A stretch of DNA of 64,000 nucleotides, taken from the NCBI GenBank assembly GCA_965262115.1, contig OZ253496.1:1280001-1344000 (forward strand), in the 5' to 3' direction. Source of the DNA: Nitrospinales bacterium (lineage in GTDB: Bacteria; Nitrospinota; Nitrospinia; Nitrospinales; VA-1). The position numbers and the translations under genes are program-made. The notes under the pieces were generated by a model. The model was not told where the DNA came from and did no database searches. It saw only the letters and a list, made by a program, of their open reading frames with translations. This document shows, one piece after another, positions 175 to 55,909 of the stretch (position 1 is its first letter; each line of letters starts with the position of its first letter).

Positions 175-236
175 CCACTTGGCGTGGGGCCAGTAGCCGT
201 GGTATTCTTCCTCAGCTTTCGTGCCCCGCAGGGATA
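175..236 (-). repeat. CCAC-N5-GTGG hairpin repeat (175-194) plus 39-bp micro-element copy (198-236)
   Basis: Reverse complement closely resembles 55846-55909. Confidence 0.85.
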
Positions 237-280
237 AATGGCCCATCAAGCCGAGACAAACCTCTTTCCACCTGCTCAAG

Positions 281-1213
281 CTAAGAGGTTCCTGAATCTC
301 CTCTTACTCTTTTCTTATTTCCCTTTTCTATTTTCACCCACTGCTTTACAAGGTTGGGTAGTCGTTCAACCACTTCATAACCAAATAAAACTTCATCAAC
401 ATATCCCATGTGAAGCATATCAATAATCCTACAGAGATATGATCTACCAGAAACCCACCAAGTGTAGTGAGAATCAACCATCAAATAGTGCAGGACTTTC
501 ACACCTTCGTTTTGGTAAAGCTCCTGTAGTTCCATCCCATCAAGCAAAGTCTCATAAACGCCGTCCGCAACCCTGCTACCAAATGTAGTTGTATAATAAT
601 ATTCTTTTATCTCCCAAACGGCATGTGGATTCACGATATTTGGGAAAGCACCGTCAAGACGCCTTGCAAGTGTTCTTAACGGAATCCCGCTTTGGGTAAT
701 CGTGGCTAATTTCATCGGGTCATAATCACAAGGCAATCCTTCTGCGTTTGCTTCGATCAGCATATTAATCATGCACGTAAAGAATGCTTTTGCTTTCTTT
801 TTTCCTCTCTGCTTATTCATCGGGAGAGGACAATTTGGTTTTAATTTTTTACGTAAACTCTCATATGTTTTTCTGGCTTTACAAGTTTTTGCTCCACGGG
901 CATTGAGTGTTTTACCTTCTTTGTTTTTTAGAAGAACCGCATCCATCAAACGTGGTTCAACGAAATTATTCAGCACATCTGCCCTATGTTTAAAATAACT
1001 CATAAGAGTCTTGGCTAAATCAGAAATGTTTCCATTTCCTTCAATCTTCTTTGGGTCTAGGTGCAGGTCGGCAAATGCTTCCTTTATTTCTTGAACTGAA
1101 GGCACTTTGATTGTACCTTCACCTCTAATGGAATACCCCGCTGTTTGGCTTACGCTTCTAACAGATGCCCAAAATGACTTATCAAGATCCAAAAACTTTT
1201 TATTTGGTTGCAT
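281..1213 (-). CDS. Putative type II restriction endonuclease (PD-(D/E)XK-like)
   Basis: 310 aa, LDGAFP...VWEIKEY motif; downstream of an XRE gene and divergent from an adenine MTase; AT-rich. Confidence 0.65.
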   Translation of the reverse strand: MQPNKKFLDLDKSFWASVRSVSQTAGYSIRGEGTIKVPSVQEIKEAFADLHLDPKKIEGNGNISDLAKTLMSYFKHRADVLNNFVEPRLMDAVLLKNKEGKTLNARGAKTCKARKTYESLRKKLKPNCPLPMNKQRGKKKAKAFFTCMINMLIEANAEGLPCDYDPMKLATITQSGIPLRTLARRLDGAFPNIVNPHAVWEIKEYYYTTTFGSRVADGVYETLLDGMELQELYQNEGVKVLHYLMVDSHYTWWVSGRSYLCRIIDMLHMGYVDEVLFGYEVVERLPNLVKQWVKIEKGNKKRVRGDSGTS

Positions 1214-1215
1214 TT

Positions 1216-1449
1216 TTACGCATCCTCATATTGTTTGATGAATTTTAAAAAGGATACATTCAAGGCACGACAGACCTCTTCAACCTCAACAAAGTCAAGG
1301 GTCTTCTCTCCAGATTCGTATTTACTAACGAAGGATTGTGGTCTTTCAAGTTTTTTTGCCAGATCAGTTTGGCGAATACCAGACTTTTCCCTGATATCAC
1401 GCAGAAGTTGCCTTAATTTGGCTCCCTTGATTTCTGTGTTGTTTCTCAT
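1216..1449 (-). CDS. XRE-family HTH protein, probable R-M controller (C protein)
   Basis: IRQTDLAKKLERPQSFVSKYESGEKTLD helix-turn-helix; ATG at 1449 preferred over the 1539 ORF start. Confidence 0.8.
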   Translation of the reverse strand: MRNNTEIKGAKLRQLLRDIREKSGIRQTDLAKKLERPQSFVSKYESGEKTLDFVEVEEVCRALNVSFLKFIKQYEDA

Positions 1450-1475
1450 GAGGGAGTTATATATCTGATTGCCAA

Positions 1476-1494
1476 ATATCCCAAAATAGAATAT
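1476..1494. promoter_or_regulatory. Possible controller operator (imperfect palindrome ATATCCC-AAAAT-AGAATAT)
   Basis: Imperfect inverted repeat in the short divergent intergenic region between C gene and MTase. Confidence 0.3.
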
Positions 1495-1531
1495 AGTTAA
1501 ATAAAAACATAGCTGTTGTGAGGAAGAACAT

Positions 1532-2422
1532 TTGCCCATAATTCAACAATCGCTCTTTGATGAGATACCCCATGTTGACGTTCAACCATTCAGAACTCAG
1601 TTATTGAAATGGATTGGAAACAAACAAAGATTTGCCAATGAAATTGTGGGCGCATTTCCATTAGCGTACAACCGCTATTTTGAACCCTTTTTGGGTAGTG
1701 GTGGCGTTCTTGCTACCCTTGCGCCAAAAAATGCATTGGCATCAGATGCTTTTCCACCACTGATGGAAATTTGGTTAGCTCTAAAAAATAACCCAGAAAA
1801 ACTAAAGCAATGGTACGAAGAGAGGTGGAAAATTGCCCACGGAGAATCAAAAAGAGAAGGGTATGAAAGCATTAAGGCCTCGTTTAATAAACAACCAAAT
1901 GGTGCTGATTTCTTATTTCTATGCCGATCCTGCTACGGAGGGGTCGTAAGATTCCGAAAAGAAGATGGACACATGTCAACCCCGTGTGGAGTCCATGAGC
2001 CTATTAAACCATCTAGCTTTAAGCATCGGGTTGATTTGTGGCATTCGAGGTTAAAACACGCAGATTTTTGCTTGCTTGACTATAAATATGCCATGAACAA
2101 AGCGAAGGAAGGCGATTTGATTTATTGTGACCCTCCATATGTGCACAGTCAGGATATTATTTATGGTGGGCAAAATTTTAAACTTCAAGAGCTACTTGAA
2201 ACGATAAATGACTGTAAAGCGAGAGGAGTATTTGTTGTGCTTAGTATTGACGGGACAAAAAAATCTGGGGAATATTTATGCGACCTCCAAATTCCGGATG
2301 GTTTATTTGAGAAAGAAATATGCGTGAATGTTGGAAAATCCATGCTTAAAAGGTTTCAAATGGAAGGACAAATATTAGAAAGTGAAAACGTAACTGACAG
2401 ATTGTTATTGACTTACTCTTGA
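1532..2422 (+). CDS. Dam/D12-class N6-adenine DNA methyltransferase
   Basis: LKWIGNKQ, YFEPFLGSG (SAM binding), IYCDPPY (catalytic); TTG start. Confidence 0.9.
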   Translation: MPIIQQSLFDEIPHVDVQPFRTQLLKWIGNKQRFANEIVGAFPLAYNRYFEPFLGSGGVLATLAPKNALASDAFPPLMEIWLALKNNPEKLKQWYEERWKIAHGESKREGYESIKASFNKQPNGADFLFLCRSCYGGVVRFRKEDGHMSTPCGVHEPIKPSSFKHRVDLWHSRLKHADFCLLDYKYAMNKAKEGDLIYCDPPYVHSQDIIYGGQNFKLQELLETINDCKARGVFVVLSIDGTKKSGEYLCDLQIPDGLFEKEICVNVGKSMLKRFQMEGQILESENVTDRLLLTYS

Positions 2423-2483
2423 AAGGGCTTAAGCTCAAAACGACTCTATCCAGCCGAGACAGCTCTTTACTCGCCTATGAAAG

Positions 2484-3614
2484 TTATTGCTCATTGCCAC
2501 CGGTCGCTGGCCGGGAGGCGACAATTTCTAGTCCCACAAATTTTATCGACAAATTTTCTCCGGGAAACTGGCTGTAGGCGTCGGTTTCATCTTCATATTC
2601 GTGAAAATCAAAATGTGAAACGTCAAAACCGATTTTCCGGACATCCTGAATCAAGGTCTCGCAAAACTTCTCTTCTATCTCCACCAGTGTTTCAAAATAA
2701 CCGCGGGTCAGTTTGTTTCGGTACTCCAGGTCACCAGCACGTTTTAAAATCTGGTATTCCAGGTCAGTATCCAGAATCATCAGGAAGCCTCCCGGCTCCA
2801 GCGCTTCTGTAGCCCAACGCAGAAACTGCTGACGCTCTGTTCTTTGCAAATGATGCAGAAACTTGTTGGCGAGAATACAGCCATAGTGTTTACCGACCGG
2901 CCCGCCGGGAAAATCAACATTCAGGACTTCTATGTTCTCCTTGCCCGAAAGTTTTACAAAATGGGTCAGCCCTTTAATAATAAAAGGCATGTTGTCTGCC
3001 AGAATCAATCGGGGGAAGTCTTTCGGCCAGTCATGGATCAAGCGGAATCCCGCAAGCCCCGTCGCCACATCCATCAGCGGAGCTTTCAGGTCATGCGGCA
3101 CCCGTTCCATCGGATTGTCCCAAGGGAAGTTCTCGGTCTGGTGCAGATAAAAGCTGTAGCTTTCACTAAGCAGGGTGACCCATTCCGGATCATTATAAAG
3201 AATCGGGTCTTTTTTAATCAGGCTGACCAGTTCATAGAAAAGGCTGGAAAACTTTTCATCCACCTGCTCCAGCGGTTGAGATAAAGAAGTGCGGTCCTTG
3301 CGAAGGTTGATGTGGATGTGGTCAAGGTTTAGAAAAACTGCCGGGCGCTCATGCTGGACATATAACAAGTCTGCAAGATCGATCAATATTTCAGGATAAA
3401 CCATACAGAGAAACAGATTAAAAACTTCCTGGTTTTTCCTACCTGGCACGGTGTCCGGGAAGCCCAGCTTGCCATTCAAAAGCTTGAAAACGGTTTGCAC
3501 TCGATGTGCCAGTTCCGGGGACTTGGTATCCTCCAGTCCGAGAAACTTTCGCCCCACATCAGTGACCAGAGGAAGTTGGTCGGTGGATTTTATAAATATT
3601 GAAGGGGAAGACAT
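2484..3614 (-). CDS. Class I SAM-dependent methyltransferase domain protein
   Basis: MDVATGLAG, NKFLHHL, ALEPGGFLMILD motifs; start set at ATG 3614 because the longer ORF starts inside a repeat. Confidence 0.65.
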   Translation of the reverse strand: MSSPSIFIKSTDQLPLVTDVGRKFLGLEDTKSPELAHRVQTVFKLLNGKLGFPDTVPGRKNQEVFNLFLCMVYPEILIDLADLLYVQHERPAVFLNLDHIHINLRKDRTSLSQPLEQVDEKFSSLFYELVSLIKKDPILYNDPEWVTLLSESYSFYLHQTENFPWDNPMERVPHDLKAPLMDVATGLAGFRLIHDWPKDFPRLILADNMPFIIKGLTHFVKLSGKENIEVLNVDFPGGPVGKHYGCILANKFLHHLQRTERQQFLRWATEALEPGGFLMILDTDLEYQILKRAGDLEYRNKLTRGYFETLVEIEEKFCETLIQDVRKIGFDVSHFDFHEYEDETDAYSQFPGENLSIKFVGLEIVASRPATGGNEQ

Positions 3615-3654
3615 ATAAAAGGTGCCTGAATAATTCGATATTTTATTTTGAGCA

Positions 3655-4070
3655 GGCGGAGTACCTCCGCGGGTAACTGGCAATGGTTTTTTTACCCCTA
3701 CGGGGCACGAAAACTGAGGAAATACCCGTGCCGGGCATGAAGGCTAATGTTGGGGATATTACAAATATCACGACTGCTAGCAACGACATCCTCGGCCTAA
3801 AAGGCTGCTGCCCCATTCCCCACCGGGCGTGGGCGGAGTACCTCCGCTGGCGAGTTGCACTATCCTCACCTTATGGGCAAACGCTCTCTCGGCCCAACGA
3901 GCTATAGCTATCGGCCTCCCTCGTAGAGGGCAGATTACCTCTGCGGGTAACTAGCAATGGTTTTTTTACCCCTACGGGGCACGAAAACTGAGGAAGAATA
4001 TCACGACTGCTAGCAACCGTTCCTCTCGGCTCAACGGGTTCTTGCTCATTGCCTCCACGGCTAGTGAGGG
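3655..4070. repeat. Composite repeat block with three micro-element copies (3693-3772 containing 3723-3763; 3967-4005) and GCGGAG-NAC-CTCCGC hairpins
   Basis: Segment 3664-3782 is repeated at 3938-4017, apart from a 41-bp insertion and a few substitutions. Confidence 0.85.
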
Positions 4071-4071
4071 T

Positions 4072-4503
4072 TCAGGGCCAATTCCACCCTGCCCGTCCGA
4101 GTAAATAAAACGTGACCAGAAGGCAAGGCAGCAAATACGGCACCGCCTGAAAGGTGCTTACGCCCATCAGGGAATAAGCCGAAAATATGGATCGGGCTCC
4201 ATAAATAACAGCCAGAACCTGGGCCAGTCTTTTCTTTCCTTTCAGCAGGTAATAGGTCAGCACACCCATAAGAAGTAAAAAAGCGACCAGTGAAAGGACC
4301 GCCGACAACCCCAGGTTGAAGGGGGGAATAAACATCATGGCGATAGCAAGATAAGCTACATTCAAGACAAGAAACCCATATCCGGCCTGGGTGAACTTCC
4401 GGGTTCTGTCTTCAAGATTTTTTAGCGGAGAACCTCCGCTCACAACCACTCCTCCTGGCATAACAGGTTCTTGCCCGGTGGATTGAAAGTCTTCGTTTTC
4501 CAT
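4072..4503 (-). CDS. Hypothetical membrane protein (about 4 TM)
   Basis: Hydrophobic segments; ATG at 4503. Confidence 0.6.
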   Translation of the reverse strand: MENEDFQSTGQEPVMPGGVVVSGGSPLKNLEDRTRKFTQAGYGFLVLNVAYLAIAMMFIPPFNLGLSAVLSLVAFLLLMGVLTYYLLKGKKRLAQVLAVIYGARSIFSAYSLMGVSTFQAVPYLLPCLLVTFYLLGRAGWNWP

Positions 4504-4619
4504 TTTCAATGTAAGATAAAAGGGAGCAACCACCTCGGCAGTTGCAGATTCATTGACGGTATGTTATCCCTGCTCTCAGTCTATCACTAAACTATTGCCA
4601 ACTGCCTTCTCTAAAAAAC

Positions 4620-6847: not shown

Positions 6848-7157
6848 AAAATAACCCCATCAAAAGTTAGACCGAAGCAAAGACCCGGTATACGCAAAAG
6901 CCTTTAGCCATAAGGATGCCTCCACCCGCATTACCCACCCGGTTCGAGCAATCAGAAATCAAGTTACTAGTTGAATATAAATATGTTACACCATTTTATG
7001 CCAAAATCTCAGGTTTTTTTAGGTGAACCTCGCTAAAAGCGGAGAGAGCCTCCACTGGCGCGATATTCTTCCTCATCTGTGAAGTCCTCTTCCTCAAACT
7101 TCAGCCCGAGCATGGGCCCCCACCAATCGAGCCCTTACTATCTGCCTCCCACGGAAG

Positions 7158-7487
7158 GAGACCTTTGCATAAGTCGAAAAAAACAGAAAAGCGAGATTAC
7201 CCGTTCTGGGCACGAAAGCTTAAGTGAAACATCACGTCTTCACTGCGTTAAGAATGACAATTACCCTCTCCTGTCATCGCGAGCGACTGGAAAGGAGCGT
7301 GGCGATCCAGGTTCTGGATTGCTTCACTACGTTCGCAATGACGATACAAGGCTGTTTTGTCATTCTGAGGAAAAGGTGACGAAGACGTGAGATTTTTCCT
7401 TAACCTTCGTGAGCCTGTGATATCCCCTCCGCTAAATTCATGCCCGGAACGGGTAGAAGGGGTAATCCCAGGTTATGCAAAGCTCTC
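7158..7487. mobile_element. MITE, 330 bp, with nested repeats
   Basis: Ends GAGACCTTTGCATAA / TTATGCAAAGCTCTC; 9-bp direct repeat CCACGGAAG at 7149-7157 and 7488-7496. Confidence 0.85.
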
Positions 7488-7525
7488 CCACGGAAGTGGA
7501 GAGATTAGCCCGTAGGGATTATCCC

Positions 7526-7554
7526 TTGACATGGGCTCTCGCCGGTGAAATAAT
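7526..7554 (+). promoter_or_regulatory. Sigma70-type promoter of the rpmH operon
   Basis: TTGACA-17 nt-AATAAT, with TG at the extended -10 position. Confidence 0.6.
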
Positions 7555-7835: not shown

Positions 7836-8068
7836 GGGCCATGTTCGTCGGCCCCACGCCGAGTGGGTGGAGAACCTCCGCTGGTAATGAACAATCTCTT
7901 TATTTTGCGGACGAAGAGTTTTGGTCGCTTGACGGGCCATTGCTCTCTGGCTCCACGCCGAGTGGGCGGAGAACCTCCGCTGGTAATGAACAATCTCTTT
8001 ATTTTGCGGACAAAGAGTTTTGGTCGCTTGACGGGCCATTGCTCTCTGGCTCCACGCCGAGTGGGTGG
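7836..8068. repeat. 99-bp tandem repeat, about 2.3 copies, between rpmH and rnpA
   Basis: CCACGCCGAGTGGG recurs at 7854, 7953 and 8052. Confidence 0.95.
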
Positions 8069-15137: not shown

Positions 15138-16043
15138 TGAACTTCCCCTGTTTTAGTGGACAGTTAGTTAAGAGGCATAGGCCTGTTTCTCGAATTCGGC
15201 AGGGCTGAGATAGCCGAGATATTAGTGACGGCGTTGCCGATTATAAAACACTTCGATATATTCAAAAATATCCTTCTTTGCTTGCTGACGGGTTTTGTAG
15301 TTCCGGTTATGAATGAGTTCCACTTTGAGAGTATGGAAAAAACTCTCCGCCACGGCGTTATCCCAGCAATCGCCCTTCCGGCTCATACTGCACTCTATCC
15401 CATGAACATTGAGCAAGGCTTGAAAATCGTTGCAGGCATATTGAACCCCCCGGTCAGAATGGTGAATCAATCCCGGTTTCATGCCGCCGTTCTTCATTGC
15501 CATATTTAAAGCTCTCATTACCAACCAACGGGTTATCCAACGATCCATGGCCCAACCAATAACTTTACGGTGGAATAAATCCAGCGTCACCGCAAGGTAT
15601 AACCAGCCCTCTTGAGTCGGGATATAGGTGATATCCGAAACCCAGCATTGACCGGGCTCAGCAACATTAAACCGCCGTTGCAGTTTGTTTTTTGCCACCG
15701 GGTGATTATGTTTGGAATCGGTTGTCACCCTAAACTTTCTTTTGTGCTTGGCAACGATTCCATGCTCGCGCATAAGACAGGCAATACGATGCCTGCCAAT
15801 GGCATATCCCTTGTCTTTCAAGTCCTCATGAATTCTGGGACTGCCATAAGTCTGGCGACTCTTCTTATAAACGGTTTTGATCTCATCAACCCATCGCTGC
15901 TTCTCACGGCTCCTCAGGCTCTCGGGGCGGCTCAGCCAGGCATAGAACCCACTTCGTCCCACTTCCAGAACCCGGCACATCGGGCTTACCGGAAATGCTT
16001 CTCGATGATCCCGTATAAACCGATATCTCATTGGGAACCCTTC
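15138..16043 (-). mobile_element. IS3-family remnant: right IR and orfB only
   Basis: IR TGAACTTCCCCTGTTTTAGTGGACA; rve motifs [26 protein letters not shown]; premature TAA at 15222-15224 (frame continues YLGYLSPAEFE to 15168); orfA absent. Confidence 0.9.
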
Positions 16044-16087
16044 TAGTACCCCTTGTATGTTGTTCATAAGGGGAATTTGTAGTAGTT

Positions 16088-16276
16088 GTACCTGTGAGCC
16101 CTGTGGGAAGCCGGTTTTGTGTTTTCCACAAGGCTCACAGGGTTTGATTCAGGGCACAATAGATCGTTTACCCCTTGGGCTTTTAAGCCCGTCCCGAAGC
16201 GCAGATCGTTGTGTCCTGTTTTGATTAACCCGAACAGTTGCCTGGGCCACTGAGCCCGCATCGGCAAGGCTGGGAG
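16088..16276 (+). ncRNA. Bridge RNA: 5' hairpin, target-binding loop, donor-binding loop; boundaries approximate
   Basis: Hairpin 16091-16141; guides TTTACCCCT (16167-16175), CCCGAAG (16193-16199), ACAGTTGC (16234-16241), CAAG (16265-16268). Confidence 0.85.
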
Positions 16277-16284
16277 ACCAAATT

Positions 16285-17235
16285 ATGAATCAGAAACCCC
16301 ATTTTATTGGCATCGATATTTCTAAACTCCATCTGGATGTTGCTGACAGCATGACTCAAGAAACCTGGCAAACCGCTAACAATGAAGAAGGGATTGCTGG
16401 TTTGGTCGAGAGTTTATCCGCCTTAAATCCTCCATTGATCGTTTTGGAAGCCACAGGCGGCTTAGAGATCCCGTTGGCTTCGGCCCTGGTTGCGGGTCGA
16501 CTGCCAGTAGCCGTGGTCAACCCACGGCAAGTTCGTGATTTTGCCAAAGCCACCGGGAAACTGGCAAAAACCGATGTCATTGATTCTCTTGTGCTGGCCC
16601 ATTTTGCCAAGGCCATACGTCCTGAGGTCAGGAAAATCAAAGACGAAGAATCTCTTGAACTCTCAGCTCTAGTGACACGCCGTCGCCAGTTGATCGAGAT
16701 GCTGACCAAAGAAAAAACCCGTCTAAAACAAGCTCCAAAATGGATATGTAAAGACATTAAGGAGCATATCGAATCTCTTAAAAAACGCTTGCGAAAAATC
16801 GATGGCGACCTTTCCAGAACCATCAAAAACAGTTCTGCCTGGCGTGAGCACGACCAGATCATACAAAGTGTTCCCGGTGCCGGTCCCGTTCCGGCTGTCA
16901 ACCTCTTGGCCGGGGTTCCGGAACTTGGAGTTCTTAATCAGAAGCAAATCGCCGCCCTTATCGGTCTCGCTCCCCTCAATCGGGACAGCGGAAAGTTCCG
17001 GGGCCGCCGGTGTATCTGGGGCGGTCGCGCCAATGTGCGTGCCGCTTTATACATGGCCGCCGTCACTGCCATGCAGCATAATCCCGTGATTCGTACCTTT
17101 TACACACGCCTCATCGAAAAGGGCAAACCCTTTAAAGTTGCCATTACCGCATGCATGAGAAAGTTATTAACGATCATCAATACCATGATCAAAACAAAAA
17201 CACTCTGGAATGAAAATCTCATTGCCAGCACTTGA
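16285..17235 (+). CDS. IS110 DEDD recombinase/transposase
   Basis: IGIDISK, VLEATGG, KTDVID (DEDD) and RDSGK (catalytic Ser) motifs; 316 aa, uninterrupted. Confidence 0.96.
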   Translation: MNQKPHFIGIDISKLHLDVADSMTQETWQTANNEEGIAGLVESLSALNPPLIVLEATGGLEIPLASALVAGRLPVAVVNPRQVRDFAKATGKLAKTDVIDSLVLAHFAKAIRPEVRKIKDEESLELSALVTRRRQLIEMLTKEKTRLKQAPKWICKDIKEHIESLKKRLRKIDGDLSRTIKNSSAWREHDQIIQSVPGAGPVPAVNLLAGVPELGVLNQKQIAALIGLAPLNRDSGKFRGRRCIWGGRANVRAALYMAAVTAMQHNPVIRTFYTRLIEKGKPFKVAITACMRKLLTIINTMIKTKTLWNENLIAST

Positions 17236-17504
17236 CATTTAACACAGTTGCTTCGGGGCATGAAGACAAATGAAGAGGACATCACAACCGATGAGGGGTC
17301 ATAACATGCTGCCAATGAGCTATAGTTCGTTGCGCCGAAAAGTCAATCGAACGCATATAGGGCTGAGAAAACTATTCACTTACCAGAAAAAGTTGTTGCT
17401 ATTGAGTCCAGCGTCACGCTGGTGGGGAGTTTTGGGTTGACGTTTAGCACGGTTTGGGAGAAGCTTGGTGCCTTCCATGAAATATTGAAAAGGTCTGTCA
17501 AATT

Positions 17505-18037: not shown

Positions 18038-18682
18038 TCAATTCGTCTTTGAAGCGTAAGACCTCTCTTCCAGGAATGCCCACCTCCTCCAATAACTGAA
18101 CATAGTATTAAAGGTCAGGGTTTCTTTCAAACGCAGGATCGCCTTCTGGATCTTCGGCTGTACAACCGGCACCAGATCGTTGCAAAGCAGTTCCACAGGA
18201 AGCGGTTCATTGGAAAGCCGGGCCATGAGGGTTGAAACTTTAGAAATCCCCAGATTCCGCCGGAAAACTTCCCGGTCCTTTATTTCCATTTTTATATACT
18301 TCACGCATTTTTCATGGAGGACGAGCCTCTGCTTCCAGGGTTCAGTTTTTTTCCATTGCTCAAATCGAATTTTGACGGGTTGGACTTCTTGCAACTCACG
18401 GAGCTCATCCATACGGGATAGGTAATCTTTTTGGAAGGCTTTTTTGACCTCGATTCGATTCTGCAATTCGTCATCGCAAGATTCCTCCGCAAACTTCTTA
18501 TCATTTTTTCTTTTTTCTTTCCATTTTTCATAATGCAGGAGGATCACCTCCCCGCGTGTCATGGATTCAATTTCCTTAAAGAGCTGCTGAGCCTCCTTAA
18601 CATGAAAAGACTTGGCCTGTTCAGCCGAGATAAACGGTTGCCAGTAAATAAAAGTTTTGCCAGTTGTACCCCTCCGGGGCAT
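18038..18682 (-). CDS. Hypothetical protein; start uncertain, ORF begins inside a repeat
   Basis: 214-aa ORF, no recognised motif. Confidence 0.45.
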   Translation of the reverse strand: MPRRGTTGKTFIYWQPFISAEQAKSFHVKEAQQLFKEIESMTRGEVILLHYEKWKEKRKNDKKFAEESCDDELQNRIEVKKAFQKDYLSRMDELRELQEVQPVKIRFEQWKKTEPWKQRLVLHEKCVKYIKMEIKDREVFRRNLGISKVSTLMARLSNEPLPVELLCNDLVPVVQPKIQKAILRLKETLTFNTMFSYWRRWAFLEERSYASKTN

Positions 18683-18724
18683 GAAACTTATATAGGAGAT
18701 ATCACAGGCCCACGCCGAGTGGGG
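18667..18724 (+). repeat. Micro-element copy (18667-18706) plus CCACGCCGAGTGG hairpin
   Basis: TACCCCTCCGGGGCATGAAAC...ATCACA then GGCCCACGCCGAGTGG. Confidence 0.85.
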
Positions 18725-20572: not shown

Positions 20573-20613
20573 TACCCCCTCCGGGGCATGAAGGCAAATG
20601 AGGGGGCACCACA
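20573..20613 (+). mobile_element. 41-bp micro-element inserted into the hairpin CCAG^CGTGACGCTGG
   Basis: Uninterrupted CCAGCGTGACGCTGG occurs at 31811-31825. Confidence 0.8.
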
Positions 20614-20704
20614 CGTGACGCTGGACCCAATGAATAGTAGTTTCTTCAGCCGAGAGACCCTTTTGCTAACCCAAGGCGGTTATTGCTGGTTGACCGTTCT
20701 CACC

Positions 20705-22501
20705 TTAGCCTTCATGCCCCGGAGGGGTATGCCTAGTGGTTGAGAGGCCATGGGTAAATTTCCAGTCAATCGGGCGGGTGAGATCCAGGCTGCCAAACTG
20801 AGTCTCAAGGTTTTTAGCGCATTCTTGCAGCAAGTCCTGTAAACACTTCTTATCCGAGTCCGTCCAAGCCATGGGAGCCTGTAGCAATTCCTGTTCGAAG
20901 GCCGCGAAGAGGTCTTCATTGCACAGCTTTGCCTCTTCCTGGAAAATGCCCGGTAGAAAGATCATTTCCAGAAAACTCTTTGCCGCCGCATCAGCAATCG
21001 GCTCACAGGATAACCGACTGAATAAAATGTACTGCGCCAAGGCTGTGGTCACCAAAGTTAACAGGTTTGAGGATTCACGGGGTTCCGAGCCATCACCGTG
21101 TAAAGACGAAAATGCTGATTCGCTCAATCCTAATCCCTGCCGGGCAAAGCGGCTGTAAAATTTCCATCGGGCTAAAAAGTCATTAACGGCCTTAACATCT
21201 TTCATGGATTTCAGATCCCGCCAATTGAAAGAATCCTCGTTTTTTTCCGCGACCTGAGGAAAACGAAAAACCAAAGCACCCAGCCTTTCCTTGTCCCCCG
21301 CTGAAATAAAATGTTCAATATAGGAACCATTTTCGTTAATGAAAGAACTTGCCAGAGACTGAACCTGTCTTAATTGTTCATAGCCCACTTGAAAAAACGA
21401 CTGCATCCAAACCTGATCCAGCAAGGCCGCTCCCTTTTTCAGGTCGTTTTCTGCCCCCAACTCCAGACCTATATTTATATACCCCAGTGTTTTTCTAAGA
21501 GCCCGCTGGCGGACATCCTTGGATGACAGCTCCAGCCTATCGGCAACAATAACTTTGTTGGCCAGGCAAACCAGTTCCCAACGCAGGGTTTCAAGGCGGC
21601 TTTCGTTTTCCAGAATGGCCAGGCATTGAGTGAAAAAAAGAGTCTCATCTAACTGAGCCAGGGGATATCGGGGAGAAAGTTTGAACGGGCTCGAGGGGAG
21701 TTCTTCCAGTGAAGGCAGTTTTAACTTTAAAGTTTCCGGATCCAAACGGCTGTATATACCCACCGCATCCTGAAATTCAGGGATGCCTCTTTCGGCGGTT
21801 CGGTTCACTCTCCAGTTATAGGCCTGCTCCACTGTAAGAGTAACGGGATACCAAATCACCGCTTCCAGCAGGTTATAAAAAAGCTTTTGATCCTTTTCAT
21901 GAAGCAAAAGCAGAAGTTTTCTGATTTCTTTACTGTTCTCAACTTTGAAAAAAATATCATAAACTCCATCGGGGGTAAAATGTTCAAGTCCCTCCACCCC
22001 TTCGTAGGAATCCGTCATTTCATCCTTCTTATAGACTTTAAAAAAGGCTTGAAGGAGCATCACCTTTTGGTCAAAATCCTCCCCATAAAACCATTCCAGG
22101 GTTTCAGGGTCATGGCATTGATCCAGCAAAACGATCCACTCCAAAGCCCGCTTGGGTTGGAACTTGTCTCCCTGCCACCATTCCACATCAAAAACATATT
22201 GCAGTTGGTCCGGCGAAAACATGGATATCACCAGAAGGGAATCCTCTTTACCCACTTCCTTAATCAAATTATAGACCTCCTCCACAGGAAGGGACTGAGT
22301 CACCTCGACCGCTTTTTCGGAAAGCATGAGGAGTTTCTGTTGCAGATGTGGGTCAAGTCCAAGAATACATCGCGCCTGTTCTTCCACCGACAGTCCGGAC
22401 AAAATATCTTCCACCTTGCGTGGCTGGGTTTTCACCCAATCCACGGGAAAAGACAGGTCTCCCCCTATATATGAATTTTCTCTATCAATTTTATCGATCA
22501 T
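20705..22501 (-). CDS. Conserved hypothetical protein (DUF6178-like)
   Basis: IKEVG.EDS..., DVEWW.GD, TPDG.Y, ERG.PEF pattern recalled from DUF6178; ATG at 22501. Confidence 0.55.
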   Translation of the reverse strand: MIDKIDRENSYIGGDLSFPVDWVKTQPRKVEDILSGLSVEEQARCILGLDPHLQQKLLMLSEKAVEVTQSLPVEEVYNLIKEVGKEDSLLVISMFSPDQLQYVFDVEWWQGDKFQPKRALEWIVLLDQCHDPETLEWFYGEDFDQKVMLLQAFFKVYKKDEMTDSYEGVEGLEHFTPDGVYDIFFKVENSKEIRKLLLLLHEKDQKLFYNLLEAVIWYPVTLTVEQAYNWRVNRTAERGIPEFQDAVGIYSRLDPETLKLKLPSLEELPSSPFKLSPRYPLAQLDETLFFTQCLAILENESRLETLRWELVCLANKVIVADRLELSSKDVRQRALRKTLGYINIGLELGAENDLKKGAALLDQVWMQSFFQVGYEQLRQVQSLASSFINENGSYIEHFISAGDKERLGALVFRFPQVAEKNEDSFNWRDLKSMKDVKAVNDFLARWKFYSRFARQGLGLSESAFSSLHGDGSEPRESSNLLTLVTTALAQYILFSRLSCEPIADAAAKSFLEMIFLPGIFQEEAKLCNEDLFAAFEQELLQAPMAWTDSDKKCLQDLLQECAKNLETQFGSLDLTRPIDWKFTHGLSTTRHTPPGHEG

Positions 22502-23576: not shown

Positions 23577-23634
23577 GATAAACAGTATTTGGGCGCTGAA
23601 ACGAATACCGATTGACGTATGAAAGGAGATCTTG

Positions 23635-23859
23635 ATGGCAACTAAGAAAAAAGCTCCAAAAAGAAAAGCCGCTAAGAAAAAAGCTCCAAAAAGAAAAGCC
23701 GCTAAGAAAAAAGCTAAAAAGAAAGCTCCAAAAAGAAAAGTAGCTAAGCAAAAAGCTAAAAAGAAAGCTCCAAAAAGAAAAGTAGCTAAGAAAAAAGCTA
23801 AAAAGAAAGCTCCAAAAAGAAAAGTAGCTAAGAAAAAAGCTAAAGCTAGAAAAAGATAA
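23635..23859 (+). CDS. Histone H1-like Lys/Ala-rich DNA-binding protein
   Basis: KKKAPKRK(A/V)A repeats; RBS AAAGGAG upstream. Confidence 0.8.
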   Translation: MATKKKAPKRKAAKKKAPKRKAAKKKAKKKAPKRKVAKQKAKKKAPKRKVAKKKAKKKAPKRKVAKKKAKARKR

Positions 23860-23999
23860 TCAAGATGGTTTGATTTTCTTCTCAGCTAAAGCTGGTTTTA
23901 ACAGAAGCACTCTCAATTCAATTTCTAACGTATTAACCCATATCGTTTCAGCGCCCAACCAATACCGCTCGCCCACACAACCATTTGTTATTCCTGCCC

Positions 24000-25905: not shown

Positions 25906-26031
25906 AGGTATCCCTCCCCACTAAGCGTGGAACCAATGCGCAATAGCTTGAATTGGCTGGCAAAAATGCTGGCGGCTGTAGTATCCCCTTCACTTGCCAT
26001 CATGCCCCGTAGGAGTGGTACTGGCTAGTGG

Positions 26032-31795: not shown

Positions 31796-31879
31796 AATCT
31801 TTTCTCCTTACCAGCGTGACGCTGGACTCACGGAACACAAAATTTTAGGAACACGTTTTGTTCGATGGGGCTAGGCTGA

Positions 31880-31918
31880 TGTGATATTTTACATTTGCCT
31901 TCATGCCCCGGAAGGGTA
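31880..31918 (-). repeat. 39-bp micro-element copy
   Basis: Minus strand TACCCTTCCGGGGCATGAAGGCAAATGTAAAATATCACA. Confidence 0.85.
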
Positions 31919-35626: not shown

Positions 35627-35627
35627 A

Positions 35628-49578: not shown

Positions 49579-49622
49579 GATTGACATACATTCGCATCGC
49601 CCCGGGTTTATAAACCTGATCT

Positions 49623-51809
49623 CTAAAGAACAATCAGTTTGGCATGGCTGGCCGAAAGTTTCTTTTTCCCGTGAGGGGCTTTAAAAAACACTTCCAGATT
49701 CAAATTTTCTTCACTACCTGAAAGGTTGATCACAATTCCCGACCCAAACTTAGCGTGCAAAACCTTTGTCCCGATAGAATAAGTACCGTCCTTTGTTCCA
49801 ATCGAATAGGAACCCCCACTTTTTCCCTGATAAGGAAGAGCTCCGCCAAGTGTGCTGATAAATTGAGGTGCGGTTTCATTGCTGAACCTGCTGGATTCAC
49901 GGATCATAACTTCATCGGGAATAGAAAGCAGAAAATCTGATGGAAGATAATTAAAAGTAGTGCCATAGATTCTCCTACGCCTGGCATAAGTGACGAACAG
50001 TTTTTTCCGGGCTCGGGTAAAACCTACATAGCACAGCCTTCTATCTTCTTCATATTGCTCAGAGTCCGACATGGAACTGGCATGCGGGAAGAGTCCATTT
50101 TCCATACCCACTACAAATACCGAAGAAAATTCCAACCCCTTACAGGTATGCAGGGTCATTAATGGAAGAACCCCACGCTCGTCATCAAGGTTATCCAGAT
50201 CCGCCACCAGAGAGGCCGAATCCAGAAACTCCTGCAGGGAACCTTCCCCATTCTCAATGGACTGCTCCACTGCGGAAAATAATTCCTCCAGATTTTCCAT
50301 ACGTCCTTTACTCTCGCGGGTATCCTCTTTTTTCAACATTTCCCCATAACCCGTTCGGTCTACCACCTCTTGCAGAAGTGCCAGCGGGTCATCCTTCATG
50401 GAATCCAGATGATCGATGATTTGCAAGAATTGGGCAATTCTCTTGCCTGCTGCAGGATCTGTCAATTTTTCCTGCTCGTTCCGGCGCAAACCCTCCTGGA
50501 GCGACAATCCCATTTCCCGGCAATACTGCTCAACCTTTTCCATCGAGGTCTTGCCAATTCCCCGGGCAGGAACATTGATAATTCGTTTTAAAGAAACTGA
50601 ATCACTCGGATTTAAAACAACCCGCATGTACGCCAGCACATCCTTGATCTATTTTCTTTCATCAAAACGCAGGCCTCCTATTACCTGATAGGGCAACCCG
50701 GTTCTCATCAACACATCTTCCAATACCCGGGACTGCGCATTGGTACGATAAAGAACGGCCATATCATTAAAGCTAAAGCCTTCGTCACGGTTCAAAGCCT
50801 GGATTTTTTCGCAAACAAATTCCGATTCATCCGTTTCATCTTCAGCCCTGTAGCACAACACTGGAGAACCCACTTCATTTTTCGTCCACAATGTTTTATC
50901 CTTCCGATTTCTGTTTTCTCTCACTACACTTCCTGCCGCATTTAAAATATTTTGTGTGGACCGGTAATTTTCCTCAAGCTTGATCACCGTTGTTCCGGGG
51001 AAATCTTTTTCAAACTTCAAAATATTTTCTATGTTTGCCCCCCCCCTCCAACGATAAATACTCTGGTCATCATCCACAACAACGCATATGTTATTGTGCG
51101 ATTGCGACAGCAGACGTACCATCCTGTACTGAACCGCATTGGTATCCTGAAACTCATCAACCAGAATATACTGAAACCTGTCGTTGTAACGAGCCCTTAA
51201 AGAAGGAAACTCCTGAAACAATCTGCTTGTAAAAACCAGCAAATCGTCAAAATCTAAAGCATTATTTTTTTTCAGGGCAGACTGGTAAACAAGATAAAGA
51301 CCCGCCGCCTTGAGTTGGTGACCATAAGGCATCGCATCCGGCTGCAAATCTTCGGGCATGAGAAAATCATTTTTGAATCCGCTGATGTGACCGAGAAGGG
51401 TTTTTGGAGGGAATGCGTCAGCACTGATTTCCGCTACCTTCATACACTGCTTGATCAAAGTCAACTGGTCCTGCGCGTCGTAGACAGCAAAATCATTGGA
51501 AAAACCCAGTTCCGAAATATTCATTCTTAGAATTCTCAGACAAAAAGAATGAAAGGTGCTGATCCAGGGGGAAGCTCCACGAAGGTCCAGCATTTTCCGG
51601 ACACGTTCCTTCATTTCCCCTGCGGCTTTGTTGGTAAAGGTTATCGCTAGAATACTTTCTGGAGGAATCCCTTTCTCTTTAATTAAATTGGCAATGCGGC
51701 AGGTGATGACACGTGTTTTCCCGGAGCCTGCTCCCGCCACCACCATCAGCGGACCCTCATTATGGCGCACGGCCTGTAACTGCTGCGGATTCAAATTTTC
51801 AAGATCCAC
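49623..51809 (-). pseudogene. UvrD/PcrA helicase, interrupted
   Basis: AGAGSGKT, DEFQD, LEENYRS, KGLEF; in-frame TAG at 50649-50651 (ERK*IKDV); deviant motifs VVVDDDQ, WRGGA, EEDRR. Confidence 0.85.
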
Positions 51810-51931
51810 GGAGTGCCTCCGATGGCAAATTGCAAAGTCTTTATTTCATCCTTCGGGGCATGGCTATAACATGCGGTAAACGTTCTCTCGGCCCTATGAG
51901 CCATTGCTATCTGCCTCCACGGCTAGTGGGA

Positions 51932-52867
51932 TTAAACTAAATTTTCCCAGGTCACGGAAGCCAGCGCCTCAACAAATGTCGGGGAAAGGTTTAACGATTC
52001 GATGCGGTGCAAACTCAACTGGCGTTCACGGGCATATTTATTAAATTCTATATCAATATCGAACAAAATTTCTACATGATCGCAAACAAAACCAACCGGA
52101 ACCATTAAAACTGTTTTTGAGCCCCGCTTTGCGATCTTATCCAAAACCGATTCCACCGTGGGCCCCAACCAGGGAATCGGTATCATCCCCTGACTCTGGT
52201 AAGCTTTATACCAGTGCCACGGTTGGACCCGTTCCACGAGCTTTGCAACGGTTTTGTCAAACTCTTCAGGATAAGGATCGCCAAACTCTAAAGATTCGGA
52301 GGGGATACTGTGCGCTGTGAAAATCGTGTGAACCGATTCTTCTACATTCGGTCCCAGTTTTTCAAGAGCCGTGCGGTATTTTTCTTCAAACGCATCAATG
52401 AGAAGTGGATGGTCCACCCAACTACCAATGTAGCGCACATCCAAATTCTCTGCATCGCAGTTTTTCAACGCTTCCTTAAAAACATTGAAGTACAAACGCG
52501 TACTCCAAGTGCTGAATTGCGGGGCCAGGCAAAGTGCCACCACTTTTTTCACCCCGTCTTCCTTCATCCTTTTTACCTCGTCACCGATATAAGGACTCCA
52601 GTTGCGCATTCCGCAATAGACTTTAAACTGCGATCCCTGCTGGTTGAGAAAAGACTCCAACCGGGCGCATAGTTCCTGGGTGATCTCCCGCAGGGGAGAC
52701 TTTCCGCCGATCTGCTCATAACGGTCGCGGATGATCTGGATGGTTTCTGGAGTGGACTCCATTCCGCCGCGAATATTTCTCAAATATTCCGGGATATCAT
52801 CAACGGACTCGGGAGCCCCATGCGCCATAAGGAAAACACCGATCAGCGGCTCGGCGGGATCATTCAT
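51932..52867 (-). CDS. hemH: Ferrochelatase
   Basis: RY..IGG.SPL, GMRNW.P, FTAHS.P, YQS, WLGP, GFVCDHVE. Confidence 0.92.
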   Translation of the reverse strand: MNDPAEPLIGVFLMAHGAPESVDDIPEYLRNIRGGMESTPETIQIIRDRYEQIGGKSPLREITQELCARLESFLNQQGSQFKVYCGMRNWSPYIGDEVKRMKEDGVKKVVALCLAPQFSTWSTRLYFNVFKEALKNCDAENLDVRYIGSWVDHPLLIDAFEEKYRTALEKLGPNVEESVHTIFTAHSIPSESLEFGDPYPEEFDKTVAKLVERVQPWHWYKAYQSQGMIPIPWLGPTVESVLDKIAKRGSKTVLMVPVGFVCDHVEILFDIDIEFNKYARERQLSLHRIESLNLSPTFVEALASVTWENLV

Positions 52868-53891
52868 GCTGGTATTCATGGACCATGTCCACCACTGCCT
52901 TGACATGCTCTACCGGGGTGTGTTGCAAAATACCATGCCCTAAATTAAAGATATACCCTCTTCCTACAGCGCGCTTGAGGATGTCATGAACCCGTTCTCG
53001 AATCACCGGTAAGGGAGCAAAAAGCGTCACTGGGTCGAGATTACCCTGAACCGGCTGGTCTTTTCCCAGCAGGGCTCGTGCAGAATCCATCTGGATTCGC
53101 CAGTCAAAACTGAGCACATCTCCGCCAGCCTTTTGCACCAGATCCAGCATCGTAGAAGTTCCGGTACTGAAGTTGATGACAGGGACTCCGGTATCTTTGA
53201 GTCCTTCGTAAACACGGCGGGAATAAGGAAGAATATATTTTTCATAATCGCCGGGTCCAAGGCACCCTGCCCAACTGTCGAATATCTGGAGAGCCTGGGC
53301 TCCTGCAGAAACCTGCATCTTTAAATAATCCACCAGCATGGTGCACACCTTGCCCATCAACTGTTCCCACACATCGGTGGCCTCATACATCATCATTTTA
53401 GTGGTTGTGAAGTCCCGCGATTTTCCCCCTTCCACCATATAACTGCACAGGGTAAACGGAGCTCCGGCAAAACCTACCAATGGAATGTTGATCTCCTTTC
53501 TCACCAGACGAATCGCGTCGGCAACAAAACCCAACTGCTCTTCCACATTGACCGGCATAAGTTTTTCAACGGCTTTTCTGTCCTTGACCGGACGCGGAAT
53601 CACAGGGCCATCTCCCGCTGAAAATTCCAAACCCGTCCCCATCGGTTCTAAAGGAAGAAGAATATCTGCAAAAATTATGGCCGCATCCACCCCCAGCACA
53701 TCCAGAGGTTGTAACGTGACCTCACACGCCAATTCCGGGTTCTTGCACAGTTCCAGGAAAGTGTATTTTTCCTTGAGGTCCCGGTAAACTTTCATATACC
53801 GACCCGCCTGGCGCATGAACCAGACCGGAGTTTTATCAACCGGTTCACCCCGGCAGGCTTTTATAAAACGGTACTCGCTTGACTTGTCCAT
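52860..53891 (-). CDS. hemE: Uroporphyrinogen decarboxylase
   Basis: PVWFMRQAGRY, GFAGAPFTL, QGNLDP, FNLGHG. Confidence 0.96.
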   Translation of the reverse strand: MDKSSEYRFIKACRGEPVDKTPVWFMRQAGRYMKVYRDLKEKYTFLELCKNPELACEVTLQPLDVLGVDAAIIFADILLPLEPMGTGLEFSAGDGPVIPRPVKDRKAVEKLMPVNVEEQLGFVADAIRLVRKEINIPLVGFAGAPFTLCSYMVEGGKSRDFTTTKMMMYEATDVWEQLMGKVCTMLVDYLKMQVSAGAQALQIFDSWAGCLGPGDYEKYILPYSRRVYEGLKDTGVPVINFSTGTSTMLDLVQKAGGDVLSFDWRIQMDSARALLGKDQPVQGNLDPVTLFAPLPVIRERVHDILKRAVGRGYIFNLGHGILQHTPVEHVKAVVDMVHEYQHE

Positions 53892-54140
53892 AAACCTCCA
53901 CTCGGCGTGGGACCACCAGCATGCAATAACTCTCTCTGGCGAGCAAAGAGCTATCTCGGTTTTAGGACCCCTTGCCAATTGCCCCTGTGGCTAGCAGTTA
54001 AAATTTATTGATTATAGGACGGGAACCCATGCGGGATCAACGGTTTGTTTTGATTGCTGCGCTGGAATCCGCTTTATCAGCCCAATTCCACTTTCATATT
54101 CCGGTAGATTTTATAGAGGTGCCGATTTTGCTCCCCGGAG

Positions 54141-54269
54141 GAGACCTTTGCGTAAGTCTATAAAGCAGAAAAGCGAGATGCTTCGACAAGCTCAGCATGA
54201 CAATAAAAGGCTATCTTGTCATTCTGAGGAACTATTGCAACGAAGAATCTTGGGTTATGCAAAGCTCTC
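54141..54269. mobile_element. MITE, 129 bp, same family as 7158-7487
   Basis: GAGACCTTTGCGTAA ... TTATGCAAAGCTCTC; 9-bp direct repeat TCCCCGGAG at 54132-54140 and 54270-54278. Confidence 0.88.
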
Positions 54270-54516
54270 TCCCCGGAGAGGCCGAAAATCTGCTTTGGCA
54301 GGCTCCTCATCCTCATCCGTTGAGAATAAAATTGCAACCGCTCCTGAATCGAAAGATGTTTGCCCTCTTTGGCTGAGGTTTCCAAATACCGCGAATAGCC
54401 AAAGCGATCGGGAAAAGTCCCGAAAGAACTAATAAAGGTCGCGGCTGAGTTTGCTCCATAATTTCCTACTGTGGAATTAAAATTTGCTTAAAGATACCCG
54501 TTAATGTTTGCATCCT

Positions 54517-55650
54517 CTAGGCAAATCGGGCCACCACTCTCGCCAGTTCTTCGAGGACAATTTCTTCTTTTTCGTTATTCAATTTTTCACGAATAAGAGG
54601 AAGTACCTCGGACCCTGAAAGTTCACCCAGAGCCCAGACCACGTGCGCCCGAATCAACGGTTCTTCATCATCCAGAACTTTAATCAGGACAGGGATAGCT
54701 TGCGGGTTGCCGGAATTGCCCAAAGCAACGGCCACATTTCTGAGCAGACCTCTTCTCTTGATCCGTTTGATCGGACTGCCTTTGAATCTTCGGCTGAACA
54801 TTTCTCCGTTGATCTGAATCAGGTCCATCAGCTTGAGCGTGTCCTGCTTCTGCTGAAAGTCCGGGTCATCAGTTTTAACCGTATAGGAATTCCACGGGCA
54901 GACAATCTGGCAATCATCGCAACCGTAAATTCTGTTGCCGATTGCCTTCCTGTACTCAACGGGTATGACCCCTTTCAACTCAATAGTGAGATAAGAAATA
55001 CATCGTTTCGAATCCAGAACGTAGGGAGCAATAATGGCATCTGTCGGGCAAATATCTATACAGCTTCTGCAGGTGCCGCAATGGTCTTCAGCTGGCTGGG
55101 ATGAAGGAAGGGCAACATCCGTCAGGATTTCAGAAAGGAAATACCAGGACCCCATGCCCTCGGTGAGAAGATTAGTGTGCTTTCCGATCCACCCCAGGCC
55201 CGCTTGTTGGGCCAAAGGCTTCTCGAGAATGGGCCCTGTATCCACATAAATCCGGGTCCGGCATCCCTCAAACTCCTCTTTGATTTTTTCCTCCATCTGA
55301 CGTAAACGCGGCGTAACAGTATCATGATAATCCTTGTTCAAAGCATAAATGGAAATATCCGCAACATCACGATGCTCGACATAACTCATATCCTTTTCCA
55401 TTGCATAGTAGTTGGTGCGAAAGCATAGAATGCTTTGCACCCCTTCCAATACGAGATCAGGATTTTTTCGCTTTTCCTGGCCGCGCCGCATATAGGCCAT
55501 TTCACCGTCGTAACCCGCGTCCATCCATTTTCCAAACCTCTCTCCAGCCGGGCCTAATTCGGGACTAGCAACTCCAAATCCGTCAAACCCCAAAATCTCG
55601 GAGAATGACTTAAGACCTGCTAACTTCTCTATTTTTTCTGCAGAATTCAT
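54517..55650 (-). CDS. queG: Epoxyqueuosine reductase
   Basis: YA...DYH, VDTGP, CG.C..C...CPT, CISYLTIE, GCDDCQ.VCPWN, HEAT tail. Confidence 0.95.
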   Translation of the reverse strand: MNSAEKIEKLAGLKSFSEILGFDGFGVASPELGPAGERFGKWMDAGYDGEMAYMRRGQEKRKNPDLVLEGVQSILCFRTNYYAMEKDMSYVEHRDVADISIYALNKDYHDTVTPRLRQMEEKIKEEFEGCRTRIYVDTGPILEKPLAQQAGLGWIGKHTNLLTEGMGSWYFLSEILTDVALPSSQPAEDHCGTCRSCIDICPTDAIIAPYVLDSKRCISYLTIELKGVIPVEYRKAIGNRIYGCDDCQIVCPWNSYTVKTDDPDFQQKQDTLKLMDLIQINGEMFSRRFKGSPIKRIKRRGLLRNVAVALGNSGNPQAIPVLIKVLDDEEPLIRAHVVWALGELSGSEVLPLIREKLNNEKEEIVLEELARVVARFA

Positions 55651-55734
55651 AAGCTTTAAGGAAGTTGATCCAATCTAGCGATTCTGATACTCTCAAGCTG
55701 CTCGCCGCAGTGGCAACAGGCAAGGACTCGTTGT

Positions 55735-55909
55735 ACCCATGCAGGGCACGCCGAAATGGTACGCCTAGTGGGCGGAGCACCTCCGCCGACAAATTGCAAT
55801 ATCTTTAACTTGCCCTCAATCGACTACTCGGCCCAACGAGTTATTTACCCCTGCGGGGCACGAAATTTAAGGAAGAGGGCATCACGACTACTGGCCCCAC
55901 GCCGAGTGG
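55735..55909 (+). repeat. Composite repeat block including micro-element 55846-55886 and hairpin repeats
   Basis: GCGGAGCACCTCCGC, TACCCCTGCGGGGCACGAA...ATCACG, GGCCCCACGCCGAGTGG. Confidence 0.8.

Follow-up and report, generated by a model that had tools for sequence, protein, structure and literature searches.

A Dispersed 39–41-Nucleotide Element with Fixed Ends and a Single Hairpin in a Nitrospinales Genome

How can a sequence of some 40 nucleotides (nt) come to stand, with the same two ends, at hundreds of places in one bacterial genome? The question is raised by a 64,000-nt stretch of DNA from a Nitrospinales bacterium (the window, below), whose genome, labelled G000, is a single contig of 2.68 Mb that is 93.9% complete. 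The window carries copies of a micro-element of 39–41 nt with the consensus TACCCS-TNC-SGGGCA-YGAA, a purine-rich spacer (N~13), and ATATCACR. A preliminary description, made from the letters of the window, had taken it for a unit that inserts seamlessly, and the sequence described there is present, on both strands, at all 13 intervals that it listed. It had also called for a genome-wide count by profile. A two-part weight matrix run over both strands of G000 returned 354 matches with scores above 20, 333 of which are 39, 40, or 41 nt long, whereas one strand of the reversed genome, used as a control, gave 0 matches above a score of 18. At a stricter cutoff there are 329 copies, a few of them double calls on nested copies. 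The micro-element is confirmed as real, with ~330–350 genomic copies and none in the control.

The ends of the element are fixed rather than ragged. Exact excision recreates a 10 + 10-nt site that exists elsewhere in G000 for 21 of 187 flank-deduplicated copies, whereas each of eight shifted excisions recreates a site for only 0–2 copies. Within the window, removal of the 41-nt copy at 20573–20613 (plus strand) gives CCAG/CGTGACGCTGG, the same as the empty target CCAGCGTGACGCTGG at 31811–31825 (plus), and because of the CCAG/../CGTG junction at this copy there is no room for a core shared at insertion. The 41-nt inner copy at 3723–3763 (plus) interrupts an outer copy at 3693–3772 (plus; 3693–3722 and 3764–3772), and its removal leaves a 39-nt copy with one mismatch to that at 3967–4005 (39 nt, plus). 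On the minus strand, an outer copy at 7386–7464 lies in a CGTC-type repeat and holds a 40-nt inner copy, 7416–7455, at the end of its loop; excision of the whole gives CGAAGA/ATC, as had been claimed. Excision of the inner copy was said to leave an intact copy, and a 39-nt copy does remain, but its hairpin is broken because GGCTCA stands for the GGGGCA of uninterrupted copies, a GG-to-CT change in the hairpin arm. The reading as a fixed-end unit is borne out, with one hairpin and with neither a target-site duplication (TSD) nor terminal inverted repeats. Other copies lie at 198–236 (39 nt, minus), 7198–7236 (plus, at a GAT/TCTTC junction within a CGTC-type hairpin repeat), 18667–18706 (40 nt, plus, at the foot of a CCCAC..GTGGG hairpin repeat), and 31880–31918 (39 nt, minus); two more, both on the minus strand, are degenerate, that at 20690–20729 in its tail and that at 25977–26017 in its head.

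Relatives supply the filled and empty alleles expected of a recently mobile unit. The comparison covered 400 kb each of G013 (94–96% identical) and G019 (98%), and gave 107 anchored element positions (reciprocal and partly counted double), at which the element was present in 35 cases, partial in 17, and absent in 55. The joined-flank test was passed by only 5 of the absent positions; among the alignments listed, most other absences are losses or replacements of whole repeat clusters. After 6 of the 11 rows of one comparison were left out as tandem or paralogous matches, eight clean single-element filled/empty pairs stand, all of them length-neutral and free of a TSD: G000 positions 1335846, 1346882, 1585917, 1807998, 2081146, and 2652172 (the last against G006), G013 position 21478, and one in G019. 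The first is the 41-nt window copy at 55846–55886 (plus), whose orthologous site in G013 is empty, of equal length, and different at 5 of the first 6 right-flank bases. A ninth pair differs by one base in a T run. These pairs show that the element has moved recently as a unit, with no duplication and no shared core. "Seamless" was thus half right, in that length is kept and the flanking sequence is not always. As the copies are kin, the counts given here are not counts of independent events. In contigs from sequencing runs, related strains replace or drop whole repeat clusters; none of the contig joints listed skips exactly one copy (7 and 25 further joints exist), and in such contigs a circle junction and tandem copies look alike.

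The two strongest covariations in the element are positions 6:10, the closing pair of the hairpin, and position 16 with the last base. Pair 6:10 is Watson–Crick in 214 of 239 G000 copies. With positions 16 and last omitted from scoring, 16:last is Watson–Crick in 219 of the 239 (0.48 expected), in 152 of 171 GTDB loci, and in 125 of 164 metagenome and viral loci. The pair occurs as T-A, C-G, and A-T, and because six identical spacers carry two different pairs, the switch has recurred. Pair-count covariation is 0.263 against 0.112 in shuffled sets (reached in 0 of 500) and ≤0.037 when slid, in 40 pattern-selected 39-mers whose relatedness was uncontrolled. This covariation indicates that the two ends of the element likely fold together at the foot of the hairpin, and the two co-varying pairs support the single-strand fold put forward at the outset. 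The spacer is unstructured, the element has one hairpin, and covariation between element and flank is negligible.

Where does the element land? Most insertions are in other hairpin repeats, as the preliminary description had noticed, or in the element itself, and there are 116 further distinct contexts. The flank on the CACR side leans weakly to N-S-Y-N-C, which resembles the element's own start, and the opposite flank has T-rich bases. Flank bases 3 and 5 are pairable with the G arm of the hairpin in 78% and 74% of 156 sites, and pairing with this arm averages 2.6 of 5 against 1.6–2.3 at eight control offsets. Nineteen tandem arrays occur, and the two members are identical in only 3 of 22 adjacent tandem pairs. 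The nested array at G000 814839–815055 has five to six copies standing head to tail, of which four are identical. Most copies are intergenic: 15 of the 329 overlap long open reading frame (ORF) calls, for the most part spurious ORFs or ORF starts. Orientation relative to transcription is unbiased in G000 (97 vs 88). Copy density in G000 declines away from the skew-inferred origin, with 123, 92, 61, and 53 copies per quartile.

In two unrelated host repeats, insertion is often accompanied by an edit of the flank. Bases 3–4 are CT in 36 of 47 filled sites and in 0 of 814 empty sites, which mostly have GG, in sets that may overlap between G013, G019, and other loci. Where the host is the element's own loop, CT is found in 22 of 31 distinct filled sites and in none of 614 uninterrupted copies (592 with GG); in the CCAC..GGCG/TGGGGCC repeat it is found in 14 of 16 filled and 0 of 200 empty sites. 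At the 15 CT sites of the loop host in G000, the inner copies have 11 different spacers and the outer copies belong to several lineages. Two orthologous pairs directly show GG when empty and CT when filled, in a third only 1 of the first 6 flank bases is the same, and three are unchanged within ~6 nt; single left-flank differences are seen in 3 of the 8 pairs. A fixed CT rule is contradicted, since GG is kept at 9 of the 31 filled loop sites and one inner lineage has both states; AAAG/AGGGG hosts are not edited. The nearest-neighbor element has the same host family in 64% of 119 cases against 6% by chance, a tie between lineage and host that could also arise from host repeats moving with their cargo. 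The edit may be a scar that the reaction leaves, or it may come from short-patch transfer from one repeat to another. As a lead only, CT is also the core of the IS110 described below and the cut site of TnpA-REP (PMC3479197).

The explanation we favor, at somewhat short of an even chance, combines single-strand cut-and-paste by an HUH-like enzyme acting in trans, for which no candidate was found, with short-patch spread among repeats. A folded single strand of the element would be cut out and pasted in by a strand-transfer enzyme, probably of the HUH type, supplied in trans. The cut would be marked by the last two bases (CR), paired with the YG next to the hairpin, much as the guide pairs with the cleavage site in IS608 and REP (repetitive extragenic palindromic) elements. 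This would bring both ends together at a single hairpin and make the excised form a dumbbell circle of 39–41 nt, and the CR/TACCC junction of a circle or tandem would extend the stem by two pairs. Flank bases 3 and 5 would help to capture the target by pairing with the G arm. In repeated hosts, copies would spread between repeat members by short-patch transfer together with a few flank bases, which would explain both the recurrent GG-to-CT change and the lineage–host tie.

Several points weigh against this explanation. Pure cut-and-paste predicts no flank change, and the change is to CT, while copying of the hairpin arm would give CC. The predicted folds are weak, about −3 kcal/mol, and on the TACCC strand the guide would lie 3′ of the hairpin, unlike IS200/IS605 and REP guides. 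A leading/lagging strand bias is absent (162 vs 167 copies, with replichores inferred from GC skew). Evidence on the active strand is divided. Non-Watson–Crick states at the two pairs are mostly T.G on the TACCC strand (54 vs 7 C.A, and 21 vs 7), an excess that favors this strand, with the paired CR just 5′ of the cut and an HUH-like logic; in IS608 the paired bases lie just 5′ of the cut (PMC3479197). The other strand has a GNA triloop and a G.T rather than A.C stem pair (2:14), and its circle is slightly more stable in 5 of 6 copies by predicted folding, all of which favors the strand opposite TACCC.

A TnpA or RAYT (REP-associated tyrosine transposase) had been suggested as mover, and none was found in G000 or in the other two highest-copy near-complete genomes, which, with the lack of a GTAG tag and of a lagging-strand bias, leaves that suggestion unsupported and also counts against an HUH enzyme. 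PF01797 and NF047646 each gave 0 matches in G000, G007, and G013, a local Y1 profile reached a best E of 0.95, and a motif scan was empty. PF04986 gave 0 in G000, but its positive control was silent; PF14319 and PF23343 gave none over cutoff in 5 genomes, with the PF14319 control also silent, and the only PF14319 signal was a below-cutoff hit full of stops. Among 31 Y1/RAYT loci (overlapping sets), a single one has copies closer than 1.5 kb, and these lie ~830 nt off and beyond another gene. Genes between copies of the element, which had been put forward as a place to look for a Y1/HUH or other mobilizer, and genes between sister repeats are housekeeping genes, IS3, or spurious ORFs. Profiles for TnpB, serine recombinases, inovirus-type Rep, and IS91 were negative in G000. 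No recurrent non-syntenic neighbor appeared among 569 adjacent ORFs, and the 18 tail-less heads in 132 viral and metagenome loci yielded no autonomous partner. Subtraction of the genes of G006, a relative with few copies, left 544 absent genes in covered blocks and 803 undecided; a by-eye reading of the genes listed, without family scans and over 1.6 of 2.31 Mb (69% of G006), yielded no candidate. Given this coverage, the mover may still be a divergent or host-encoded enzyme. No candidate enzyme tracks element copy number.

Other enzymes were tried and set aside. Tyrosine recombinases (three full matches and a fragment in G000) were rejected because the junctions have no overlap. Cas1 duplicates its target and was rejected on that ground; what we take to be Cas1 genes were recognized by eye in ORF lists. 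A reverse transcriptase is broken in G000 and does not track copy number. Neither does the Ssn-like nuclease, whose query was found in none of the 6 genomes of genus g10, and DUF559 genes have a copy nearby in 1 of 7 cases against a background of 15%. The DUF559 nuclease genes of G000 (377385, 660936, 735444, 1034378, 1582297, 1589978, and 2140509) lie between inverted CCCCT-rich hairpin repeats in a REPtron-like layout. Small GIY-YIG genes resembling Ssn single-strand nucleases lie between CGTC-type repeats at loci L032 (1483–1818) and L034 (G000 2573200 and 2378945); these repeats carry micro-elements, and the L034 gene appears to be interrupted by one.

A bolder version of the preferred reading, possible if doubtful, would make the family a new class of minimal transposon: a 40-nt single-stranded DNA dumbbell in which one hairpin sets both ends, mobilized by a protein that belongs to none of the known transposase families and might be the host's own, and that writes CT at the landing site. 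Such an element may come out with enough precision, or allow enough frameshifting, to ride in an active IS3. In the IS3 copies of G000, each of the 15 orfA/orfB junctions found has a 41-nt copy directly behind the A6G slippery site, and in 8 of them IS110 is a further interruption. With the copy present, the −1 frame is closed and orfB is at +1; exact removal brings back the orfA stop and reopens the −1 frame into orfB. Full IS3 copies are nonetheless 99.5–99.9% identical (for example, C1:411426, 603857, and 696224). Upkeep despite the closed frame could be due to a +1 slip at CCC-CGA, transient excision, or an intact helper since lost; three of the junction copies lack CCCC.

Of the alternatives, a homing-like route holds up best, though we consider it unlikely. 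Here, a piece of single-stranded DNA made up of the element and a few flank bases would anneal by microhomology at a nick or fork and be copied in without a dedicated transposase, the piece being released, for example, by hairpin-cutting Ssn/GIY-YIG or DUF559 nucleases, and the fold would protect or delimit it. The GG-to-CT counts in the loop host and the CCAC repeat, the left-flank differences among orthologous pairs, and the lineage–host tie all fit this route, and the 2 Ssn-like and 7 full DUF559 genes of G000 do sit in hairpin repeats. It has difficulty with the same two ends recurring in the 116 distinct other contexts, in an IS3, and on phage contigs, which calls for an end-defining reaction, and near-identical elements in unrelated hosts have little flank in common. 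SsnA cuts upstream of its repeat rather than at the stem/loop sites used here (PMC11893778), and the Ssn-like query had no match in genus g10, where all 6 genomes have the element.

That the element is an ordinary REP-like repeat, its RAYT lost or visiting on phages or plasmids, is distinctly unlikely. In favor, it is an extragenic, imperfect, high-copy hairpin targeted by IS110, as REPs are (PMC11208160, PMC3116915, PMC8266576, PMC3479197, PMC6006769), and two-base pairing beside its hairpin could pick the cut as it does in REPs; 17 of the 70 genomes in the family contain RAYT-like genes, and the element itself is on three phage contigs. The GTAG/CGTC tetranucleotide that would stand 5′ of the hairpin is absent, since the consensus shows TTCR in that place on one strand and already ends there on the other, and neither a genomic or copy-flanked RAYT nor an autonomous partner among the tail-less heads was found. 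The cut is not at CT, and the mobile unit is a single fixed-end copy, polymorphic in the eight orthologous pairs, rather than the inverted doublet described for REP/REPIN–RAYT systems (PMC3116915, PMC8266576, PMC3479197, PMC6006769). Turnover between 94–98%-identical genomes that lack a RAYT also implies that the element was active recently.

RNA-templated insertion, in which a transcript is reverse-transcribed at a nick in the manner of prime editing or retrohoming and the flank change is co-conversion, is a long shot. It would yield insertions without a TSD, length-neutral flank edits, and tandem copies, and the IS3 copy does lie in a coding transcript. However, the reverse transcriptase of G000 is broken, PF00078 had no match in G007, G019, or G064 yet did match in the low-copy G006, and there is neither a transcription orientation bias nor an Rfam match. 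The weakest proposal, that the element is an internal-deletion derivative of the window's IS110 moved by the IS110 recombinase, has in its favor that half a copy lies on either side of the IS110 at 16047/17286 and that G000 has 24 copies of this IS110, and is largely refuted: IS110 leaves a CT core duplication that the element never does, the right halves differ, the RNA loop matches the element's middle, and IS110 occurs in 5 of 70 genomes, G007 and genus g10 not among them.

The copy at 16047–17286 (plus; 16047–16053 and 17253–17286) shows what IS110 is instead. It is one 41-nt copy, as had been listed, but the IS110 that splits it had been overlooked. This element, 16054–17252 (plus), consists of 1197 nt plus a duplicated CT core inserted at TACCC-CT-TCGGGGCA, and contigs that skip it are seen. 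Its transposase gene, 16285–17235 (plus), is intact and encodes 316 amino acids with PF01548 and PF02371 (E 5.5e-30 to the IS621 transposase). Fold and motif matches predict a bridge RNA at 16141–16279 (plus) with target guides at 16169 (TACCCCTT) and 16193 (CCCGAAG) and donor guides at 16233 and ~16264 (AACAGTTGC and GCAAG). In IS621, the left-end RNA has the same layout of target and donor loops, and the DEDD and Ser (Transposase_20) domains, the CT core, and a hairpin-repeat target are also shared; the target here is the micro-element and not a REP, and the micro-element has none of those features (PMC11208160). The predicted target loop matches the element's middle rather than its ends. 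In 23 of the 24 IS110 copies in G000, the left target is TACCC-CT or differs little from it, and the CT core is present in duplicate. Because their right halves belong to different micro-element copies, while the internal sequences are mostly 98–100% identical, the micro-element is the IS110 target, and IS110 is a parasite of the micro-element and not its mover. The earlier statement that the window holds no candidate mobilizer thus needs amending, as it has this IS110 and an IS3-family orfB, yet IS110 does not explain the element's movement. The orfB (rve, HTH_21) is at 15222–16067 (minus); the split copy has the orfA/orfB junction of this IS3 as its host on the left, and the locus lacks orfA. 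The locus is one of three-layer parasitism, with the element inside IS3 and the RNA-guided IS110 inside the element. The stretch 16047–17306, with its left flank from the IS3 junction and its right flank from a different nested copy, looks like a recombinant of two IS110 copies.

Set beside known systems, the element is not a REP, a PATE (palindrome-associated transposable element), a MITE (miniature inverted-repeat transposable element), or IS110-derived on the features tested. The classical MITE test failed for want of terminal inverted repeats and a TSD, and the test for an IS110-derived miniature failed because the ends differ from IS110 ends and no CT core is found at the junctions. Nostoc small dispersed repeats (SDRs), reported by Elhai et al. 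in 2008, seem the closest known kind: they are said to be very small (21–27 nt), dispersed, precisely inserted, and nested in themselves and in other repeats, with the mover unknown. The likeness lies in a size below 100 nt, dispersal, precise insertion, and nesting; the differences are the length of 39–41 nt, the one hairpin with an end-to-foot pair, the flank edit, and the different phylum and sequence. Rolling-circle elements of the IS91/Helitron kind lack a TSD and have a terminal hairpin, tandem copies, and a target like their own end. The micro-element resembles them in these respects, its target motif G-N-R-S-N being similar to, but not equal to, its own GGGTA; it is far smaller, no Y2/Rep was found, and few of its tandem pairs are identical. 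With IS200/IS605 and PATE elements it shares the lack of a TSD, a hairpin, guide-like DNA–DNA pairing, and a likely single-strand circle, and it differs in using one hairpin for both ends and in having no conserved target tetra- or pentanucleotide, no lagging-strand bias, and no TnpA (PMC7290912, PMC3479197). In IS200/IS605 a guide 5′ of the hairpin pairs with bases 5′ of the cut; pairing is present here too, but, depending on the strand, the guide lies 3′ of the hairpin or the paired bases lie 3′ of the cut. The PATE-like element described is 271 nt, against ~40 nt here (PMC7290912). The element seems to work most like a one-hairpin single-strand element of the IS200/IS605 or REP type. Duplication-free, precise insertion of ~40-nt single strands would be new enzymology.

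We know of no agreed mover for SDRs or CGTC repeats. For the movement of repeats far below MITE size, this family offers several handles: a compensatory pair from which the cut can be predicted, targets that are defined, a two-base scar that is reproducible, and a choice of active and inactive genomes. Literature searches, exclusive of subscription papers and supplements, found no description of the element or of such a flank edit. Rfam was searched without a match, and the REP and PATE features failed, so the known family that the preliminary description had considered possible did not turn up; a plasmid search gave no match. As judged from sequence matches, the element appears restricted to one Nitrospinota family and its phages. 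The pattern matched in 40 of 70 genomes of the family, including 6 of 6 in genus g10, and the few single matches in genera g9, g11, and g12 appear to be due to chance or to coding sequence. A stricter pattern had no match in the 24 genomes that represent three other families of the order. Of 119 GTDB loci, from 11 of 64 database parts scanned, the 80 listed all carry Nitrospinota titles. Four loci sit on three viral contigs; among the phage-contig copies L054–L057, one lies where a probable capsid gene ends, and a single 50-kb contig carries several.

Copy number is high in G000, G007, G013, G019, and G064, with high-copy genomes in genera g1, g7, g8, and g10, and low or nil in G006, G009, and genera g3 and g9. 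G006, an 85–88% identical relative, has only ~6 degraded copies per 400 kb (C1:1–400000). It has also lost most sister hairpin repeats, which suggests a common dependence. In G086, a 78-nt tandem pair stands in frame in one of two duplicated gene segments (L461:2748–2825, against 3029), and the other duplicate is empty. The window holds a second family of modular ~100-bp hairpin repeats (CGGAGNACCTCCG, CCCAC..GTGGG, and CCAGCGTSACGCTGG) at 3655–4070, 7837–8065, 51809–51930, and 55768–55900, and no enzyme was found associated with it there. At 23577–23860 lies a small Lys/Ala-rich tandem-repeat gene, presumably histone-like by its composition, whose repeat number differs between strains.

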